DNA of 61,838 nucleotides from contig DASPRZ010000055.1 of assembly GCA_035624185.1 (NCBI GenBank), positions 1-61,838 of the forward strand, given 5' to 3'. Shown here piece by piece: positions 3,004 through 55,920 of this stretch. Origin of the DNA: Candidatus Acidiferrales bacterium (GTDB taxonomy: Archaea > Halobacteriota > Bog-38 > Methanoflorentales > Methanoflorentaceae). Each line of letters begins with the position of its first letter. The stretch's first letter is position 1. The notes under the pieces were generated by a model that was not told where the DNA came from, ran no database searches, and worked only from the letters and a program-made list of their open reading frames with translations. The translations under genes and the position numbers were made by a program.

Positions 3004-4602
3004 TCACCATTCAGTAATCATACGAACCGTTGTAAAAACTGGCCCCCGTAGATCTATTTTCTTATTTTGACTTGTGATGTAGCGCTTTGCGATAGGATCG
3101 ATTCTGATATTGATATCACTGGGAGATCGAGATATCCTTATCCTAACCTCAAGTTCCTTCCTGCCCTCTTTTAAGGCTCTCTCAATTTCATGTGCTGCTT
3201 CTGCAGCGAAAGCAGCAATGTAAGTAATACCGGTTGAAATGCCAGAGGAGATTGTCGCGCCAATGACGTTGTTATCAGTCACGAAAATCTCATTCAAAAA
3301 AGCAGGGCCGCAAAGTTTTGTGTTCTCTTCGGGTTCAATAACTGAAACTTTTACAAACTCACCCAGCATTTCACCCTCCCACGCAACAAACTCAACGGGG
3401 CTCGGATCTTTGCCATGGATCTTGCAGATATCTACTATCGCATTTTGTACTTCTTTCCCCTGATCCGTAAGCGGCTTCAATCTAATTGAGATAAGATTGC
3501 GGATTTCTTCATCACTTAAGGTAAATTTTTCATAAAATTGTGGGTAGACGAGCTCTCTTATATCTCCATAGTCGTAAACGATCATGGCTATCCTTTCAAC
3601 ACCCGGTCCGCAGTTTAATACGGGAACGTCTATGCCGTAGTTTGCGAGTGTTACAGGACTGTACAGTCCAAAGTCAGATACCTCGAGCCATCCGTCACTC
3701 TCACTTGTCCCGAGGTCGAAGTCAGGATGATACGCATATGCTTCATAATGCTTACCTGGAGCATAATATGTGTCTGTTCCTGTTTCAATCCTGTCAAATT
3801 TAAACTCCTCGAACCCAAGTGGATTTAATAGCTCCGTTGTAATCCACTTCCCAACGTCTATGGAAACATCTTCATCCATCACAACGCAGGACGCTGAGTT
3901 ATGAACTTTAAGGTGTGTGGCATCTTCGCGCTGCTCTCTCCGAAAACGAAGACCGATTGAAAAGAGTTTGACGGGGAGTGATTTATAATGTTGCACAGCA
4001 CTTAGCGTGTCAAACCACGCTGACGTCATATGCGATCGGAGGGTGAGATTTGAGGGCAATGGTTTGAGCTTCTTGAATTCTGGAAGCGTTTTTTCAAATA
4101 CCTCAATCGCACGTGCATCGTCAATGTTCAAAACCCTCGCGATTTCTCTTACAAGCTCATCTGCTTCGACCTCACCCGTTTTCAACTTATGGAGCGTCTC
4201 TTGCAGTTCTAGTACTTTCTTCTCCGGTAGTTCGATTCCAAGTGACCGTATTTTGGCTTGCTTCTGAGCGCTCAGTCCCACGTCTGGTCTCGGGAGTGCG
4301 GCGAGGTAGTAGCACCTATCAAGAATAGCGTACCCTGTTGGCCCCCATTGTTTCATCACATCTTCTGCGGGAAAAATCGTCTCATTTATGACTTCATCAA
4401 ACCCCATTTCAAATAGTCGTTCTCTAAGCCTCCCTATAAGGTCATTTACCCTATGGCTTTTCCCGCGCACCCCTTTGGGGAGGATCCTCGACATGTTATA
4501 AGCGCTACCGTCATTTAGTAATTCTCCGCCATATTTCCATGCACTTTCAAAGTCTTTTTGCTCCTTGATCTTCAATAATTCATCTATGGGTATTCTCTTC
4601 AA
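3004..4602 (-). CDS. sepS: O-phosphoserine--tRNA(Cys) ligase (SepRS)
   Basis: Matches remembered SepRS blocks: DRCYYLAALPRPDVGL, LTLRSHMTSAWF, FRREQREDATHL, HNSASCVV, VYSPVTLANYGIDVPVLNCGPGVERIAMI, YPQFY. Confidence 0.93.
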   Translation of the reverse strand: MKRIPIDELLKIKEQKDFESAWKYGGELLNDGSAYNMSRILPKGVRGKSHRVNDLIGRLRERLFEMGFDEVINETIFPAEDVMKQWGPTGYAILDRCYYLAALPRPDVGLSAQKQAKIRSLGIELPEKKVLELQETLHKLKTGEVEADELVREIARVLNIDDARAIEVFEKTLPEFKKLKPLPSNLTLRSHMTSAWFDTLSAVQHYKSLPVKLFSIGLRFRREQREDATHLKVHNSASCVVMDEDVSIDVGKWITTELLNPLGFEEFKFDRIETGTDTYYAPGKHYEAYAYHPDFDLGTSESDGWLEVSDFGLYSPVTLANYGIDVPVLNCGPGVERIAMIVYDYGDIRELVYPQFYEKFTLSDEEIRNLISIRLKPLTDQGKEVQNAIVDICKIHGKDPSPVEFVAWEGEMLGEFVKVSVIEPEENTKLCGPAFLNEIFVTDNNVIGATISSGISTGITYIAAFAAEAAHEIERALKEGRKELEVRIRISRSPSDINIRIDPIAKRYITSQNKKIDLRGPVFTTVRMITEW

Positions 4603-30737: not shown

Positions 30738-30782
30738 ACAGAATTTATAAGAACAGAATTTATAAGAACAGAATTTATAAGA
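30738..30782. repeat. Perfect tandem repeat ACAGAATTTATAAGA x3 abutting the tRNA-Cys 3' end
   Basis: Read directly from the sequence. Each unit contains a TATA-like TTTATAA. Confidence 0.95.
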
Positions 30783-30852
30783 GCCAGCCCCCGGAGTCGG
30801 ACCGGGATATGCCGCTCTGCAGGCGGCTGCGTAGCCATTCCGCCAGACTGGC
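30782..30852 (-). tRNA. tRNA-Cys (GCA)
   Basis: Hand-folded cloverleaf with a 7-bp acceptor stem (one G-U), 3-bp D stem, 5-bp anticodon stem, loop CUGCAGA (G37), 5-bp T stem and discriminator U73. CCA is not encoded. The T-loop reads UCCGACU (C at position 55). Confidence 0.9.
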
Positions 30853-32155: not shown

Positions 32156-32565
32156 ATGAAGTTATTGATGTTCGATACGAACGAGTTCTGGTATAAAACG
32201 TTTGGCAAAACCCTCGATCACGTCGATACCGTAGACACGGAAGATCTGTAGAGGACGCACTGGTCATCTTTATAAATGTTGAGAAAGAGGACGAGGCTCA
32301 ACGAGATAAGGTCGTTAAAAAAGCTGTTGAAAATATCTCCTGGCTGGCGAAAAAAACGAGTAGAAACAGAGTGGTTCTGCACTCCTTTGCCCACCTCTCA
32401 GACAGTAAGTTGAGCGTTATGTTCGCCGAAGAGGTATTTCGGCTGATCATGGAGAAGCTCAACGCAAAAGGGCTTGAAACCAACATGACCACATTCGGCT
32501 ATTTCCTCGAATTTAAGATTCATGTAAGAGGGGAATCCTTAGCTAAGGTATGGAAATCCATTTGA
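32156..32565 (+). pseudogene. frameshifted paralog of the free-standing ThrRS-editing-domain protein
   Basis: MKLLMFDTNEFWYKTF...DTEDL stops at 32249. The other frame (open from 32197) then continues ...EDALVIFINVEKED...VVLHSFAHLSDS...FGYFLEFKIHVRG. This aligns with 40430..40972. Confidence 0.7.
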
Positions 32566-33639: not shown

Positions 33640-34330
33640 GATTTTAAAGACATTTTTGTGTAAGTCAAAGCCACTCTGTCTCACAGCTGCGACATCTCAT
33701 AAGTCTCTATGAGGTATCAGGTCACACCCGGTGCATGGCACACACATTGTCTGTGCTACGTCACATCTCAGACCGTACCGATCTAGTATCTCCGCGCTCT
33801 TTTTCAGCTAGTCATAGGAGTCGTTCTGCATCAGGCCGTTTAATGCCGACTTGAGCCCTCAACGGATGCTCAACAGCAGCTCTAAGGATGGGAATCACCC
33901 CAATTTTGGCAAGTTCGGCCATGCCATCTATCACGATCTTATCACTCTCTCCAAGACCTATGATGATGTTCGAAAACACTTTGTTTCTGCCGAATACCTG
34001 CACTGCATCTTTAAGCGCATCGATGATGAAATTCGAGGAGAGACTAGAGCACATCTTCTCAAAGAGGTCGCGGTCCATGGTCTCAACGTTGTACTTGATC
34101 TCGTCAGCATCGGCGTCTTTTAAAATCCTATTAAATCAGCAGTAGGGTACACGGACACGCCAATAGAGGGGTTGTATTTTTTTAACCTCTTGGCATTGAA
34201 CCTTAGGAAAAATGACGTCAACCCGCATCAGGGGCCGAGGCGGGTGTGGTGACTCGGCCGAGCAATTTTTCATCTATGTCTGCCCCGCCCACGGCAATTA
34301 AAAGAGCTTTAATCTCCGCATATTTGTGCA
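33640..34330 (-). pseudogene. multiply disrupted radical-SAM-like (BioB/HydE-type barrel, C-terminal half) gene remnant
   Basis: Pieces lie in three frames: ...SIGVSVYPTADLIGF / KDADADEIKYNVETMDRD...IIIGLGESDK... / LKKSAEILDRYGLRCD...CVPCTGC. No CxxxCxxC N-terminus in any frame. Confidence 0.45.
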
Positions 34331-38773: not shown

Positions 38774-39163
38774 CTACGCGGCTTCTTTCGTTTTTCCCTT
38801 CATTTTGGCCTTGTAGTCCTCAATTGCTGCGTGCAACGCATCTGCAGCCAAATTCGAGCAGTGCATTTTTATTGGTGGTAGCCCTTCGAGGCTCTCAGCC
38901 ACATCATTCCTTGTAATCTTCAACGCTTCTTCTATAGTCTTTCCCCGTGCAAGATCAGTTATCATGCTGCTCGTAGCGATTGCTGCACCGCAGCCAAATG
39001 TTTTAAACTTTATGTCAACGATGATATTATTTTCAACTTTTATCATGATTTGCATCAAATCTCCGCACACGGGATTTCCCACGGTTCCAACCCCGCTCGG
39101 GTTTTCTATTTCCCCCATGTTATGGGGATTCATAAAGTGCAGCATTACTTTGTCGCTATACAT
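38774..39163 (-). CDS. iscU: IscU/NifU-like Fe-S scaffold
   Basis: GNPVCGD, FGCGAAIA, HCSNLA. Confidence 0.92.
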   Translation of the reverse strand: MYSDKVMLHFMNPHNMGEIENPSGVGTVGNPVCGDLMQIMIKVENNIIVDIKFKTFGCGAAIATSSMITDLARGKTIEEALKITRNDVAESLEGLPPIKMHCSNLAADALHAAIEDYKAKMKGKTKEAA

Positions 39164-39178: not shown

Positions 39179-40375
39179 TCACTCAGGTTTTCCGTAACCT
39201 GCGTCATTACATTTATAAAGCGGTGACATAAGTCGTAGCCTATGTACCACATCGGGAAGCACTTCTAGGACATAATTTATGTCATCTTCTGTGTTATCTC
39301 TCCCAAGTGTTAGCCTCAAAGAACCGTGCGCATCTACAGGATCCAATCCAATTGCAAGGAGAACGTGTGAAGGTTCAAGCTTCTTTGAGGAGCACGCAGA
39401 TCCAGTCGAGGCTGCTATGCCTTTTGCACTGAGACTCAAGACTAACGACTCGCCTTCGATAAAACTGAAACTGAAGTTAGCATTATTAGGGAGTCTTCTC
39501 TCTCTTCCGCCATTTAACCGCACGTGCTCCATAGTGCTCAGAACCGTGTCTATTAGTTTGTCTCTCAGTTTCTTGATTCGTTCATTGTCGTAGAAGTCTT
39601 CTATTGTTAGCTTTATAGCTTCTGCGAATCCAATGATTCCTGAAACGTTTTCGGTTCCACTCCGTAAACCTTTTTCATGTCCCCCCCCAAACAGTAATGG
39701 TTGTAACTTGGTCCCTTTGCGCACGTAGAGACATCCAACACCCTTTGGTCCATAGATTTTGTGTGATGACATCGAAAGCATGTCTACATTCAAGGTATCT
39801 ACATCAACAGGGATTTTCCCGACACTTTGCACTGCATCAGTGTGCAAGTGAACATTATGCGCTTTCGCTATCTCCCCGATCTCTGAAATCGGCTGAATCG
39901 ACCCTATTTCATTATTTGCATGCATAATCGAAATTAACACAGTGTTATCTTTTATCGCAGTTTCAACATCACCCAGATTGACTATGCCATCACGGTTGAC
40001 AGGAACGTACGTGACCTCATGTCCGTCCTTTTCTATGTTCTTGCACGTCTCAAGGATGGCAGGGTGTTCTATTGCGGAAGTGATAATATGGCTTCTTTTT
40101 TTAAGCAAGCCGCGTAACGCCATATTGTCGGATTCGGTTCCACCAGACGTGAAAATGATGTCAGTAGCATTGGCCCCAATTGTACGTGCAATGGTTTCCC
40201 GTGCTTCTTCAATAGCACGCCTTGCTTCAAGCCCATAGGCGTGTAGGCTCGAAGGGTTCCCAAACTTCTCAAAAAAATAGGGCATCATCACATCGAGAAC
40301 TTCCCGGCGCATCGGAGTCGTAGCGGAATGATCGAGATAAATCATGTCACCATCTCGCTGTTCAATTCGTACCAT
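39179..40375 (-). CDS. iscS: class I cysteine desulfurase IscS/NifS
   Basis: SSHKIYGPKG (PLP Lys) and GSACSS (catalytic Cys loop). Confidence 0.92.
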   Translation of the reverse strand: MVRIEQRDGDMIYLDHSATTPMRREVLDVMMPYFFEKFGNPSSLHAYGLEARRAIEEARETIARTIGANATDIIFTSGGTESDNMALRGLLKKRSHIITSAIEHPAILETCKNIEKDGHEVTYVPVNRDGIVNLGDVETAIKDNTVLISIMHANNEIGSIQPISEIGEIAKAHNVHLHTDAVQSVGKIPVDVDTLNVDMLSMSSHKIYGPKGVGCLYVRKGTKLQPLLFGGGHEKGLRSGTENVSGIIGFAEAIKLTIEDFYDNERIKKLRDKLIDTVLSTMEHVRLNGGRERRLPNNANFSFSFIEGESLVLSLSAKGIAASTGSACSSKKLEPSHVLLAIGLDPVDAHGSLRLTLGRDNTEDDINYVLEVLPDVVHRLRLMSPLYKCNDAGYGKPE

Positions 40376-40429: not shown

Positions 40430-40972
40430 TCAAATTTTCTGCAAATCGTGGAGACTTCTCTGTAATTCCGCTACATCATGTAGCTTTATAGGATTCGTAC
40501 AGTACGGGCATATAAAGTCGCATTCTGTCTTTCCGTATGGGCAAATAATCTTTGATAACACTGCCATCGGGTGGCCTTTGCTTTTCACGTCAAACTCTTT
40601 GTTCCAGCCAAAGGGGGCCCTTTTCACATCAAACCCTTCATGTTTCAAGGAATTTTCAAGCAAATTCAAGATCAACAAGGCAACTTCGGGAGAACCAAGC
40701 GTGCTGGTGAGGTGGGCGAACGGAAATATCATAATTTTGTTTTCCTTAAGCTTTCCCATAACATCAACTATGCCTTTTTTGGCAGCATCGACTATGCCTT
40801 CTGGGTTGATTTCATCGAGCTTTTCAACGCATGAGAATACCACGAGACAATCTTCCATGGCGTCACTTTTTGCTTCGATTTTTTCAGCCATTTTAGTCTT
40901 TTTAGTGACCTTATAGTTGATCCTATCTGCATGAATTAAAAGAAGTCTAATATACCTCCCTCCGTCGAACAA
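40430..40972 (-). CDS. free-standing archaeal ThrRS-editing-domain (tRNA-Thr_ED, DTD-like) protein with C-terminal Cys4 zinc ribbon
   Basis: IMIFPFAHLTSTLGSPEVA...KRAPFGWNKEFDVKSKGHPMA matches the archaeal ThrRS N-terminal editing-domain pattern. The tail reads CPYGKTECDFICPYC. Confidence 0.8.
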   Translation of the reverse strand: MFDGGRYIRLLLIHADRINYKVTKKTKMAEKIEAKSDAMEDCLVVFSCVEKLDEINPEGIVDAAKKGIVDVMGKLKENKIMIFPFAHLTSTLGSPEVALLILNLLENSLKHEGFDVKRAPFGWNKEFDVKSKGHPMAVLSKIICPYGKTECDFICPYCTNPIKLHDVAELQRSLHDLQKI

Positions 40973-41219
40973 TTTAAATCACATGCTTTAGGTGAGCTGC
41001 GCGCTTAGCATGAAAAGTTTTGTCTACTTACTCCCTTTTAAAGGTTAACCTTTATTATACAATTAGTTTTGGTTTACGGACATATTTTGTCCGTTTGTAA
41101 ATGTTAAATACACTTATATGCTTAATTATCATACGGATATTATAATATGGACCAATTTGATAATCGGCTCTAAGAAAGTCTCTTGATTTATGTATACTAA
41201 ACATAATTAAGGTGCAAAT

Positions 41220-41393
41220 ATGGATGAACGAATTAATAATTTATTTGAAGCTTTATTCGCATTGACAGATTTACGAGTATTGTTCAGGGAAACAGCACCG
41301 TTACACAAGTTTAGCGAAGAGCAAAAGGATAACGCGAGAGATATTCTTAACCGCGCAAAAGATGCCCTAAATAAGCTCGAGGAGGCGCTTTAA
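41220..41393 (+). CDS. 57-aa helical protein translationally coupled to SepCysS (candidate SepCysSn / truncated SepCysE-like helper)
   Basis: AAGGTG RBS. ORF MDERINNLFEALFALTDLRVLFRETAPLHKFSEEQKDNARDILNRAKDALNKLEEAL. Its stop lies 2 nt before the SepCysS ATG. Not in the ORF track (<60 aa). Confidence 0.5.
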   Translation: MDERINNLFEALFALTDLRVLFRETAPLHKFSEEQKDNARDILNRAKDALNKLEEAL

Positions 41394-41395
41394 AA

Positions 41396-42568
41396 ATGAA
41401 GATAGCAGATAGCATACCTGTTCGTGAAGTCGAAGAGACGTATGTTAACATACATCCGATCCAGGCGGCAGGGCGTTTGACCGCAGAGGCTATGAAAGCA
41501 TTAATTGCATTTGGTGACGGATATTCTACGTGCGATCAGTGCAGAAAACCATTCAGACTTGACAAGATTACAAAACCTCCCATTGCGGAGTTTCACGATA
41601 ACTTGGCGAAATTCGTCAATATGGACCATGCACGGGTTACGCCAGGTGCGCGAAGAGCGTTTCAAGCGGTGTGTCAATCACTCGCGGAAAAAGGAGATTC
41701 AATAATAGTAACGGCCGTTGCGCATTATACTGAATTCTTAGCAGTAGAGAGTGCCAAGGCAGTAGTGAAGGAAGTCCCATTGGACAATAAAAATATTATA
41801 ACTGGCGATGCAGTAGCTCAAAAAATAGAGGATGTCACTCGAGAGTCTGGTAAACCACCTGTACTCGTTTTGCTAGATGCTTTTGACTATTCATTTGCCA
41901 ATGAACATGATGTTAAAGGAGCTGTTAAGTCTGCCCACCAGTATGATGTACCTCTATTGTACAATGGAGCATACACTGTAGGTGTGAAGCCGGTCGATGG
42001 AAAAGCGTTGGGAGCCGATTTCGTAGTAGGTTCTGGACACAAATCGATGGCTTCTCCAGCGCCGAGCGGAGTTTTGGCCACAACAGACGAATATGCGAGC
42101 AAGGTACTTCGAACAACACAGATGATGGGTGACGTGACGAGCAGAAAATTTGGTATAAAAGAAGTCGAAATGCTCGGCTGCACACTCATGGGCGGTAACA
42201 TACTCGGTATGATGGCATCATTTCCCACTTTAAAACAGCGTATTAGCGAGTGGGATGAATACGTGAAGAAATCAAACTACGTCATAGATGCAATTTTGAG
42301 TATAAAAGGAAACAGAAGCCTAAGTGAATATCCCCGCAAACATACACTTACAAAAGTAGACACTACTGATAGCTTTGACGTTGTTGCACGAACACATAAA
42401 AGGCGCGGTTTCTTTTTTAGTGATGAATTAAAAGAACGGGGAATTGTGGGCGAATTTGCAGGAGCAACGCGCACTTGGAAATTAAACACCTACGGTTTAA
42501 GCTGGGATCAGACGAAATATGTAGCGGACGCATTTAAAGAAATAGCGAATAAATACAGTCTGTCGTAA
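41396..42568 (+). CDS. pscS: Sep-tRNA:Cys-tRNA synthase (SepCysS)
   Basis: Blocks match remembered SepCysS: FGDGYSTCDQC, GSGHKSMASPAPSGVLA, EVEMLGCT, KRRGFFFSDELKERGI. Confidence 0.93.
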   Translation: MKIADSIPVREVEETYVNIHPIQAAGRLTAEAMKALIAFGDGYSTCDQCRKPFRLDKITKPPIAEFHDNLAKFVNMDHARVTPGARRAFQAVCQSLAEKGDSIIVTAVAHYTEFLAVESAKAVVKEVPLDNKNIITGDAVAQKIEDVTRESGKPPVLVLLDAFDYSFANEHDVKGAVKSAHQYDVPLLYNGAYTVGVKPVDGKALGADFVVGSGHKSMASPAPSGVLATTDEYASKVLRTTQMMGDVTSRKFGIKEVEMLGCTLMGGNILGMMASFPTLKQRISEWDEYVKKSNYVIDAILSIKGNRSLSEYPRKHTLTKVDTTDSFDVVARTHKRRGFFFSDELKERGIVGEFAGATRTWKLNTYGLSWDQTKYVADAFKEIANKYSLS

Positions 42569-42622: not shown

Positions 42623-43009
42623 ATGAAGACAAATGAAATGCAATCGAATATGAGACCCCGATGTGAAATTATTGTGCAGTACGTCCTTCCAGCAATAAGG
42701 GCTGAGATGGCTATACAGATGCAAAAACAGGGGATAAGTCAAATTAACATAGCGAAAGCACTTGGAGTAACTCCTGCAGCGGTAAATCAGTATTTGAGGA
42801 GTAAGAGGGGAGCGGCAGAACAGGACAATGAAATTTTAAAGATCATCGATGAGTTCATTGAGGAGTATAAAACTAATCCAGACGCGCTTGGCGAACACTT
42901 ATGTGAAGTCTGTAACAGAATCAAACTGTTATTAGATAGACCTAAGAATACGCCTACGAATACGGAATCAGAGCACGACTATCACTGCTACAACTTTTGC
43001 TGCTCCTGA
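42623..43009 (+). CDS. HTH transcriptional regulator with conserved Cys residues (paralog of 54180..54506)
   Basis: The shared pattern is CEI-x4-VLP-x-IRAE, then an HTH (ALGVTPAAVNQYL), then CxxC (CEVC). Confidence 0.7.
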   Translation: MKTNEMQSNMRPRCEIIVQYVLPAIRAEMAIQMQKQGISQINIAKALGVTPAAVNQYLRSKRGAAEQDNEILKIIDEFIEEYKTNPDALGEHLCEVCNRIKLLLDRPKNTPTNTESEHDYHCYNFCCS

Positions 43010-54651: not shown

Positions 54652-55920
54652 ATGCCAGGACAAGGAACGAAAGCTCTACATGGGGGACAAATACCAGACC
54701 CCTCAACAAAGGCACGAGCGGTACCGATTTACCAAACGACGTCGTTTGTATTTGACAGCACGGAACACGCTGCGAATCTATTTGCCTTGAAAGAACTCGG
54801 CAATATTTACTCGAGGATCATGAACCCGACGTGTGACGTTCTCGAGCAGAGAATAGCGCAGCTTGAAGGGGGCAAGGCAAGTCTTGCGGTTGCAAGTGGC
54901 CAATCAGCTACCACATTGTCACTTCTGAACATTGCGAGGCCAGGGGATGAGATTGTATCTTCGTCGCTGCTTTATGGTGGGACGTACACGCTATTTTCCT
55001 CAACTCTTGCAAAAATGGGCATTAAAATACATCTGATAGATTCACGGAATCCTGAGAATTTCAACAGCTACGTCAACAACAAGACGAAAGCATTTTTCGG
55101 CGAGACCATTGGCAATCCGAGCTTAGATGTACTAGACATTGAAACGGTGGCTAGCATAGCGCATGATAACGGGGTGCCGCTTATCGTTGACAACACTGCC
55201 GCGTCTCCTATTTTAAGCAGACCGATAGAGCTTGGGGCGGACATAGTTGTGCACAGTCTCACTAAATTCCTCGGTGGGCACGGAACATCCATTGGCGGTA
55301 TCATCGTAGATGGTGGAAATTTTGATTGGACCAACGGAAAATTCCCTGATTTTACCGAACCTGATCCGACGTATAACGGCATTAAATATTCAGAAGCGTT
55401 TGGGGACCTAGCATTTATCGTGAAGGCACGAGTTCATCTGCTTCGAGATATTGGCCCAGCACTAAGTCCATTTAACGCTTTTCTCACCCTCCAAGGAGTT
55501 GAAACACTCCACTTGCGGATGGAAAAACACTCTTCCAACGCACTCGAAGTAGCAAAGTTCCTTCAAGGGCACGATAAAGTTTCGTGGGTGAGCTATCCAG
55601 GGCTTGAAGGGCATCCCTCTTATGAGCTATCCAAGAAATATTTGTCAAAAGGGGCAAGTGCCTTGGTAGGATTCGGGGTGAAAGGTGGATACGAGGCAGC
55701 AGTAAAAGTTATTGAAAGTGTAAAGCTCTTCAGCCATCTCGTTAACATTGGAGATTCGAAATCTTTAATTGTACATCCAGCGAGTACTACCCACCAACAG
55801 CTGAGTGGTGAGGAGAAAATAAGCGCAGGGGTAACTGATGATTTCATACGGTTATCAATCGGAATAGAAGATGTTGAGGATATCCTAGAGGACTTGAACC
55901 AAGCGTTATCATGCGTGTAA
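54652..55920 (+). CDS. metY: O-acetylhomoserine (thiol)-lyase / sulfhydrylase
   Basis: PLP fold type [12 protein letters not shown] Lys context and C-terminal IRLSIGIED. Confidence 0.9.

Follow-up and report, generated by a model that had tools for sequence, protein, structure and literature searches.

Editing of Ser-tRNAThr by archaeal threonyl-tRNA synthetase (ThrRS) has been studied on the isolated editing domain, which retains the activity, and mutation of His83 or Lys121 in the P. abyssi enzyme impairs it (PMC4491819). The Y120A/E134A double mutant keeps both its activity and its discrimination between Ser and Thr; these side chains can both be replaced by Ala because specificity rests on main-chain atoms and on the 2'-OH of the tRNA (PMC4491819).

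Closer to the locus described here are the genes named tRNA-Thr-ED, which are coupled to clade VII SepCysS (Sep-tRNA:Cys-tRNA synthase), to a tRNA-Cys gene and to sulfur genes (Mukai et al. 2017, mBio, PMC5424206). The Cys-rich C-terminus of their products was already described in that work (Text S1), and serine editing in cis or in trans was proposed there because dephosphorylation of Sep-tRNACys gives Ser-tRNACys. Later, SepRS (O-phosphoseryl-tRNA synthetase) proteins fused to a tRNA-Thr-ED domain were reported in some bacteria, and the U73 discriminator was noted as common to tRNAThr and tRNACys (Mukai et al. 2022, PMC8762117). The term tRNA-Thr-ED was found in the literature only in these two papers, and our literature search found no experiments on any member of the family.

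A sequence-only reading of the DNA studied here had proposed a trans-acting aminoacyl-tRNA deacylase placed beside the tRNA-dependent cysteine pathway. The stand-alone form, the key residues and the gene context agree with that proposal, but it is not new, since the two descriptions by Mukai et al. had already published both the sequence finding and its interpretation. [quoted passage not shown] We favour, with a probability of roughly 0.45, the reading that ED would be a trans-acting aminoacyl-tRNA deacylase of tRNA-Cys within the SepRS/SepCysS module, with Ser-tRNACys as its leading substrate. The broader reading of a tRNA deacylase connected with the metabolism of cysteine and sulfur may be held with greater confidence.

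Domain architecture and fold

The window, that is, the whole stretch of DNA analysed, comprises 61,838 nucleotides. The genome from which it comes is 2.16 Mb long and 72% complete, and the presence of McrA identifies the organism as a methanogen. The ED gene and the parts of its product are placed as follows.

40430..40972, minus strand: ED gene, stand-alone editing-domain protein, stop codon included (ORF list and translation)
40544..40948, minus strand: tRNA-Thr_ED (DTD-like) domain, residues 9-143 (Pfam, PDB, AlphaFold2, Foldseek)
40499..40543, minus strand: cysteine motif C144-x6-C151-x3-C155-x2-C158 (ICPY..C.DF.CPYC; alignment)
40433..40498, minus strand: C-terminal remainder of the tail, variable (xNPIK followed by a predicted helix; alignment, AlphaFold2)

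The ORF translation starts at a TTG codon and gives a protein of 180 amino acids. Its match to Pfam PF08915 (tRNA-Thr_ED) scored 155.3 bits (E 1.3e-45; gathering cut-off 30.2) and covered positions 2-137 of the 137 in the profile. This was the single Pfam domain, followed by a tail of about 37 amino acids and nothing else, and no synthetase or anticodon-binding domain was found by Pfam in the 180 residues. The NCBIfam model of archaeal ThrRS was matched only over its first ~140 positions, far under its whole-protein cut-off. A free-standing editing domain of the ThrRS type, with neither of the other two domains after it, had been noticed in the sequence-only reading and is borne out by these matches and by the fold. 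The signature motifs named there were all found in the translation, PFAHLTS at residues 84-90, RAPFGWNKEFDVKSKGHP at 118-135 and CPYGKTEC-DFI-CPYC at 144-158.

The best solved relatives were two ThrRS editing domains, 4rrf from M. jannaschii (E 8e-35) and 2hl1 from P. abyssi. Residues 8-134 were confidently modelled by AlphaFold2 with 90 homologues (pLDDT 83-96), and Foldseek superposed the model on both structures with an rmsd of 1.8-1.9 Å and a TM score (target) of 0.82-0.88. More than 236 homologues of 165-190 amino acids were found, the nearest named records being the 'Halobacteriota/Methanomicrobia archaeon SPRUCE' MAGs.

Active site and pocket

The active site was compared in an alignment of 90 family members with 61 ThrRS domains. 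Twelve positions were invariant in both sets (P84, A86, H87, L88, F121, G122, W123, K125, G133, H134, P135 and S140), among them H87 and K125, the equivalents of P. abyssi His83 and Lys121. The adenosine and main-chain pocket (P. abyssi Pro80, Ala82, Phe117, Gly118, residue 119 and His130) is kept throughout the ED family as well. Loss of catalytic residues, a doubt raised in the sequence-only reading, is therefore not the case, and ED is probably still catalytically active.

Unlike the ThrRS domains, the family carries C42, T89, T91, E126 and A137, where ThrRS has Ser at position 89 (61/61), Asp or Glu at 91 and Ala or Ser at 126. At position 131, the Cys that never varies in ThrRS is missing from the stand-alone family, whose first strand is basic and not acidic. 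In the window protein, the pocket side chains Tyr120 and Glu134 are also lacking, with N124 and V138 in their places; as both are dispensable by experiment, this is no argument against activity. The changes in the pocket region (S89T, D/E91T and A/S126E, with Y124N and E138V here) could nevertheless reflect a different substrate.

Y124N and E138V form a clade-specific set with K141 and K148, present in 14-15 of the 90 sequences, and the loss of Tyr and Glu together with the gain of two lysines in a SepRS-only clade would suit a phosphorylated substrate. ED might then be a Sep-tRNACys hydrolase, a safety valve that would free tRNA-Cys when sulfur limits and SepCysS stalls, and the divergent pairing of its gene with that of SepCysS would fit such a role. 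However, other clades of the family keep Tyr, and Glu or Asp, at the two pocket positions, and the reaction would amount to a futile cycle that consumes ATP; we consider this activity highly improbable.

Relation to ThrRS

The ThrRS of the source genome, a protein of 604 amino acids encoded on another contig, has its N-terminal editing domain intact. In a sample of 301 genomes of the phylum, the stand-alone form was confined to a limited set of families, and a full-length ThrRS with its own editor was present in each stand-alone-bearing genome for which a ThrRS was listed. The possibility, mentioned in the sequence-only reading, that ED is simply the canonical editor split off from a ThrRS without one does not apply here; this candidate was rejected because the editor of the genome's ThrRS is intact and both forms co-occur in the ED-bearing genomes listed.

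In a maximum-likelihood tree of the editing domains (147 columns, quick search), the stand-alone proteins formed a group of their own, apart from all 60 ThrRS domains included. These 60 lay on one side of a branch with an SH-aLRT support of 90 and the Cys-tailed stand-alone proteins on one side of another with 96, whereas a stand-alone protein from Hadarchaeota without the tail fell between the two groups. The window protein was not sister to the ThrRS domain of its own genome. The tree was read excluding the row of the second paralogue described below, which had been translated in a wrong frame, and the separation of stand-alone and ThrRS domains is independent of that row. Therefore, as the ThrRS editor is intact and the tree separates the two forms, the ED family is an old paralogue; its descent within Methanomicrobiales, Methanocellales and this peat lineage appears to have been vertical.

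The conservation of all the Ser-editing residues, and the fact that the isolated ThrRS domain acts on Ser-tRNAThr, would also be compatible with a redundant trans-editor of Ser-tRNAThr comparable to the crenarchaeal ThrRS-ed, or with one that removes homoserine, or a different hydroxy-amino acid, mischarged while MetX and MetY are active; the overlap of the metX stop with the ED start in many loci can be adduced as well. Such a role is nevertheless quite unlikely, as ThrRS has its own editor in every genome checked and tRNA-Cys, the tRNA of the preferred reading, is favoured both by the SepRS fusions and by the conserved Cys and sulfur context.

A second, divergent editing-domain paralogue was observed in the window (32156-32565, plus strand), 1.3 kb from the tRNA-Cys gene, and another copy on contig C106 (L004:1501-1710). 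Its motifs (HSFAHLS, TFGYFLEF and RGES) imply that the equivalents of Lys121 and His130 are lost. Compared with the C106 copy, the window copy has lost 1 nt, which breaks it; the C106 copy is identical over about 215 nt, 35 nt of upstream sequence included, then diverges and ends after 69 amino acids. Both copies look damaged, unless there is an assembly problem.

The cysteine-rich tail

Among 90 family members, C155, P156, C158 and P161 were invariant, and C144 and C151 were conserved in at least 98%. The consensus of the tail in the main family, ICPY-x4-C-DF-x-CPYC-x-NP, is essentially invariant in the alignment. The tail as a whole was modelled with a pLDDT of about 40, and the helix at residues 164-179 was predicted with low confidence (AlphaFold2).

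A zinc ribbon was defined by two CxxC/CxxH knuckles on beta-hairpins or by a match to a Zn-ribbon family. The C-x6-C-x3-C-x2-C spacing leaves only one CxxC in the tail, and no significant Pfam match was obtained for the three family tails tested. The tail of the window protein scored best with zf-Di19 (13.4 bits against a cut-off of 27.5, E 0.096); over all three tails the top score was that of Zn_ribbon_RlmA (16.7 bits against a cut-off of 27, E 0.0075). When residues 136-180 were searched for in longer proteins, none turned up. Therefore, with a single CxxC, no family match for three tails and the low pLDDT, the zinc-ribbon assignment was rejected: of the 'Cys4 zinc ribbon' claimed in the sequence-only reading, the four conserved cysteines stand and the ribbon is not supported.

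The spacing of the last three cysteines, CX3CX2C, is known from [4Fe-4S] sites, and CPYC is a glutaredoxin motif as well. The tail likely binds a metal, as Zn or as an Fe-S cluster, and since it starts six residues past position 138, which in solved dimers extends into the pocket of the other subunit, the metal site would be near the active site.

Families f14 and f2 have Cys-rich tails too, in which the number of cysteines is kept and the spacing is different. Their tails, from four f14 loci and one f2 locus, read for example CPFAGGEC..CC......C and CAC.....C....C. The editing domains of both are also variant, with RAAFGWYK against RAPFGWYK, and are still preceded by MetX or SepCysS.

The neighbourhood in the window

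The genes and sites around ED, and the other genes of tRNA-dependent cysteine synthesis in the window, are the following.

3019..4563 (family-match coordinates), minus strand: SepRS (TIGR00470, 582 bits)
30781..30852, minus strand: tRNA-Cys(GCA), discriminator U73 (ARAGORN and reading of the sequence)
38774..39163, minus strand: IscU/NifU scaffold (TIGR03419, 207 bits)
39179..40375, minus strand: NifS/IscS-type cysteine desulfurase, 54 bp downstream of ED (TIGR03402, 542 bits)
41076..41094, no strand: palindrome ACGGACA-N5-TGTCCGT in the divergent ED/SepCysS promoter region (pattern search)
41220..41393, plus strand: 57-aa ORF, SepCysSn-like, coupled to SepCysS and divergent from ED (ORF)
41396..42568, plus strand: SepCysS (NF006810, 603 bits; TIGR02539, 395 bits)
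54658..55911, plus strand: MetY, O-acetylhomoserine sulfhydrylase (60% identity to Methanocella MetY)

The position of ED between iscSU and the SepCysS unit, as first read from the letters, was confirmed by the ORFs and the profile matches. The SepCysS unit diverges from the ED gene at a distance of 247 bp. Its 57-aa ORF had no family match among Pfam and NCBIfam profiles and was also found upstream of SepCysS in five other loci. A SufS-like desulfurase and FdhD are likewise encoded inside the window. Two cysteine desulfurase genes flank the ED locus. The stretch from the stop of ED to the start of iscS contains a run of six T and a TATA-like box, and co-transcription of ED with iscS is therefore not established.

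The palindrome pattern matched once in the window, where 0.03 matches would be expected by chance. It lies in a block of about 45 bp (41050-41100) whose sequence, unlike that of the flanks, is kept in six loci belonging to two genera. This block is probably an operator, perhaps one serving the HTH gene that is always found after SepCysS (42623-43009). It differs from the metY-type operator TATAACAATTGTTATA, which was absent near the ED gene.

At 33700-34215 (minus strand), three short tblastn pieces with 44-66% identity matched a Methanoregula radical-SAM protein. This protein is intact near SepCysS in Methanoregula loci, and the pieces in the window look like a fragmented remnant.

Gene context across relatives

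Synteny was followed by tblastn of reference proteins on about 100 loci. The recurring core was SepCysS-MetY-MetX(CBS)-ED, in which the start of ED frequently overlaps the stop of metX; the operon is kept across at least six families, and the synteny recurred in more than 25 loci. A cluster of sulfur genes was always found around ED, the core being followed either by IscS-IscU or by DUF1890-DUF1894-ThiI. Methanocella, where ThiF and ThiS are also present, and family f24 have the first arrangement, and Methanoregulaceae and other Methanomicrobiales the second. ED followed by IscS-IscU recurred in six loci. In Hadarchaeota, IscS-IscU is divergent and adjoins MetY-ED. The family of the window is rearranged, with the HTH gene, SepCysS and the 57-aa ORF on the other strand, divergent from ED-(IscS)-IscU, and with MetY and MetX 5-14 kb away. 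Therefore, the link of ED to the genes of tRNA-dependent cysteine synthesis holds across several methanogen families, and conservation of the neighbourhood, which the sequence-only reading had left to be checked, is observed.

DUF1890 (MTH0777, PDB 1kjn), DUF1894 (MTH0776, PDB 1z9v) and ThiI followed ED in 15 loci (for example L007:6555-8436). DUF1890 carries an invariant LGCPE(V/A)P motif, and a literature search found no mention of DUF1890 or DUF1894. A predicted complex of ED with DUF1890 scored 0.02, a value that speaks neither for nor against an interaction. In a single complete genome (L106), the reading frame of ED continues without a break into DUF1890; since two genomes of the same genus keep the two genes separate, this fusion is at most weak evidence and may be an assembly error. 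In the same locus and in L105, also from Methanoregulaceae, distances of 1-10 kb separate cysK, cysS (CysRS) and the ED operon, which form a 'cysteine island' that mixes the direct and the tRNA-dependent routes.

The constant company of sulfur-transfer genes (IscS/IscU, ThiI, ThiF/ThiS and DUF1890 with its invariant GCPE motif) and the retention of the cysteine count in f14 and f2 despite different spacing would also suit a role away from tRNA, either as a sulfur relay or carrier through the Cys tail (persulfide or Fe-S) or as an esterase of small-molecule esters, for example O-acetyl-homoserine or O-acetyl-serine. Against it, the invariance of Lys125 and of the adenosine-pocket residues is in keeping with an aminoacyl-A76 substrate, and in the Hadarchaeota relative the gene context is the same even without a Cys tail. 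Such a function is very unlikely in our estimation, and the same invariant residues would be accounted for by the preferred reading, a deacylase of tRNA-Cys.

Cysteine supply in the lineage

Searches for CysRS, CysK and CysE gave no match in the source genome and in two further members of its genus with single-contig assemblies; in the sister genus, two single-contig genomes yielded neither CysRS nor CysE. The genomes searched were 72-91% complete by markers. Among 18 further genomes, all of them ED-bearing, 13 had no match to CysK. The tRNA-dependent synthesis thus seems to be the only recognisable cysteine route in this lineage. Cysteine desulfurases of both the IscS and the SufS type were observed in four genomes that were negative for CysRS, CysK and CysE.

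[quoted passage not shown] ED could be the enzyme in question, freeing the cysteine made on tRNA for IscS, SufS and other consumers, with the tail sensing Fe-S or sulfur status and so setting the split between translation and free cysteine. We know of no enzyme for the regulated deacylation of Cys-tRNACys. Besides the postulate itself and the search results for CysRS, CysK and CysE, the two desulfurase genes flanking the locus, the start of iscS-iscU 54 bp past the ED stop and the recurrence of IscS-IscU beside ED in Methanocella, f24 and Hadarchaeota would agree with this role. However, the pocket looks Ser-specific with no evident thiol-specific feature, Methanoregulaceae have ED without adjacent iscSU and in some cases with CysK and CysRS nearby, the hydrolysis of a cognate aminoacyl-tRNA is costly, and the marker completeness of the genomes limits what the search for CysRS, CysK and CysE can say. 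On balance, we regard a Cys-tRNACys deacylase as unlikely.

Proposed function

In the reading that we prefer, ED would act in trans on Ser-tRNACys that could arise by dephosphorylation of Sep-tRNACys or by mis-serylation under cysteine scarcity and that, if not cleared, would place Ser at Cys codons. By analogy with the solved ThrRS domains, an ED homodimer would bind A76 in the adenosine pocket, the small hydroxy-amino acid would be selected by the main chain, and the ester would be hydrolysed by the tRNA 2'-OH with a water molecule held by Lys125. The four-Cys tail, probably metal-bound (Zn or Fe-S), might add docking, gating or the sensing of sulfur status.

The presence of SepRS, tRNA-Cys (with U73) and SepCysS within one window was counted in favour of tRNA-Cys as the target. 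On the other side, the tightest neighbour of ED in most lineages is metX, through the overlapping stop and start, and DUF1890-DUF1894-thiI, found downstream in some lineages, has no link to tRNA-Cys.

Organisms that make cysteine only on tRNA must avoid Ser or Sep at Cys codons when the pathway stalls, and both Fe-S assembly and the rest of their sulfur chemistry require cysteine in free form. ED, a conserved protein of deacylase type in these operons, is an obvious candidate for one or both of these tasks. Once its substrate is shown, it would represent a new trans-editing step in methanogens or a valve between translation and sulfur metabolism.

Comparison with known systems

The D-aminoacyl-tRNA deacylase-like proteins DTD and ATD share the fold class of ED (Foldseek E ~1e-5, TM ~0.5), but their identity to it is only 13-15%, and the Gly-cisPro motif of chiral selection is not a conserved feature of ED; a separate DTD2 is encoded in the source genome. 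Factors of the YbaK/ProXp type are also small and stand alone, each deacylating one particular mischarged tRNA; the substrate of YbaK is Cys-tRNAPro. They belong to an unrelated fold (the INS/YbaK superfamily), are bacterial and have no Cys-rich tail.

The crenarchaeal ThrRS-ed, a Ser-tRNA(Thr) hydrolase (Korencic et al. 2004; NF011500), is likewise free-standing and acts in trans with the same editing domain, but it keeps the anticodon-binding domain and occurs where the catalytic ThrRS has no editor. NF011500 matched the window protein with 102.8 bits against a cut-off of 362, and only over the editing domain. Assignment to ThrRS-ed was rejected, as ED has no anticodon-binding domain and the genome's ThrRS keeps its own editor.

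[quoted passage not shown] It differs from that domain in being unfused, in forming its own clade, in its four-Cys tail, in Cys42, Thr89, Thr91 and Glu126, and in the loss of Cys131.

[quoted passage not shown] To the picture drawn for that family, the present locus adds a genus in whose searched genomes CysRS, CysK and CysE were not found and in which ED yet lies directly upstream of iscS-iscU, together with the exact tail motif, the family-specific residues, the operon types and the Y-to-N and E-to-V pair of one clade.
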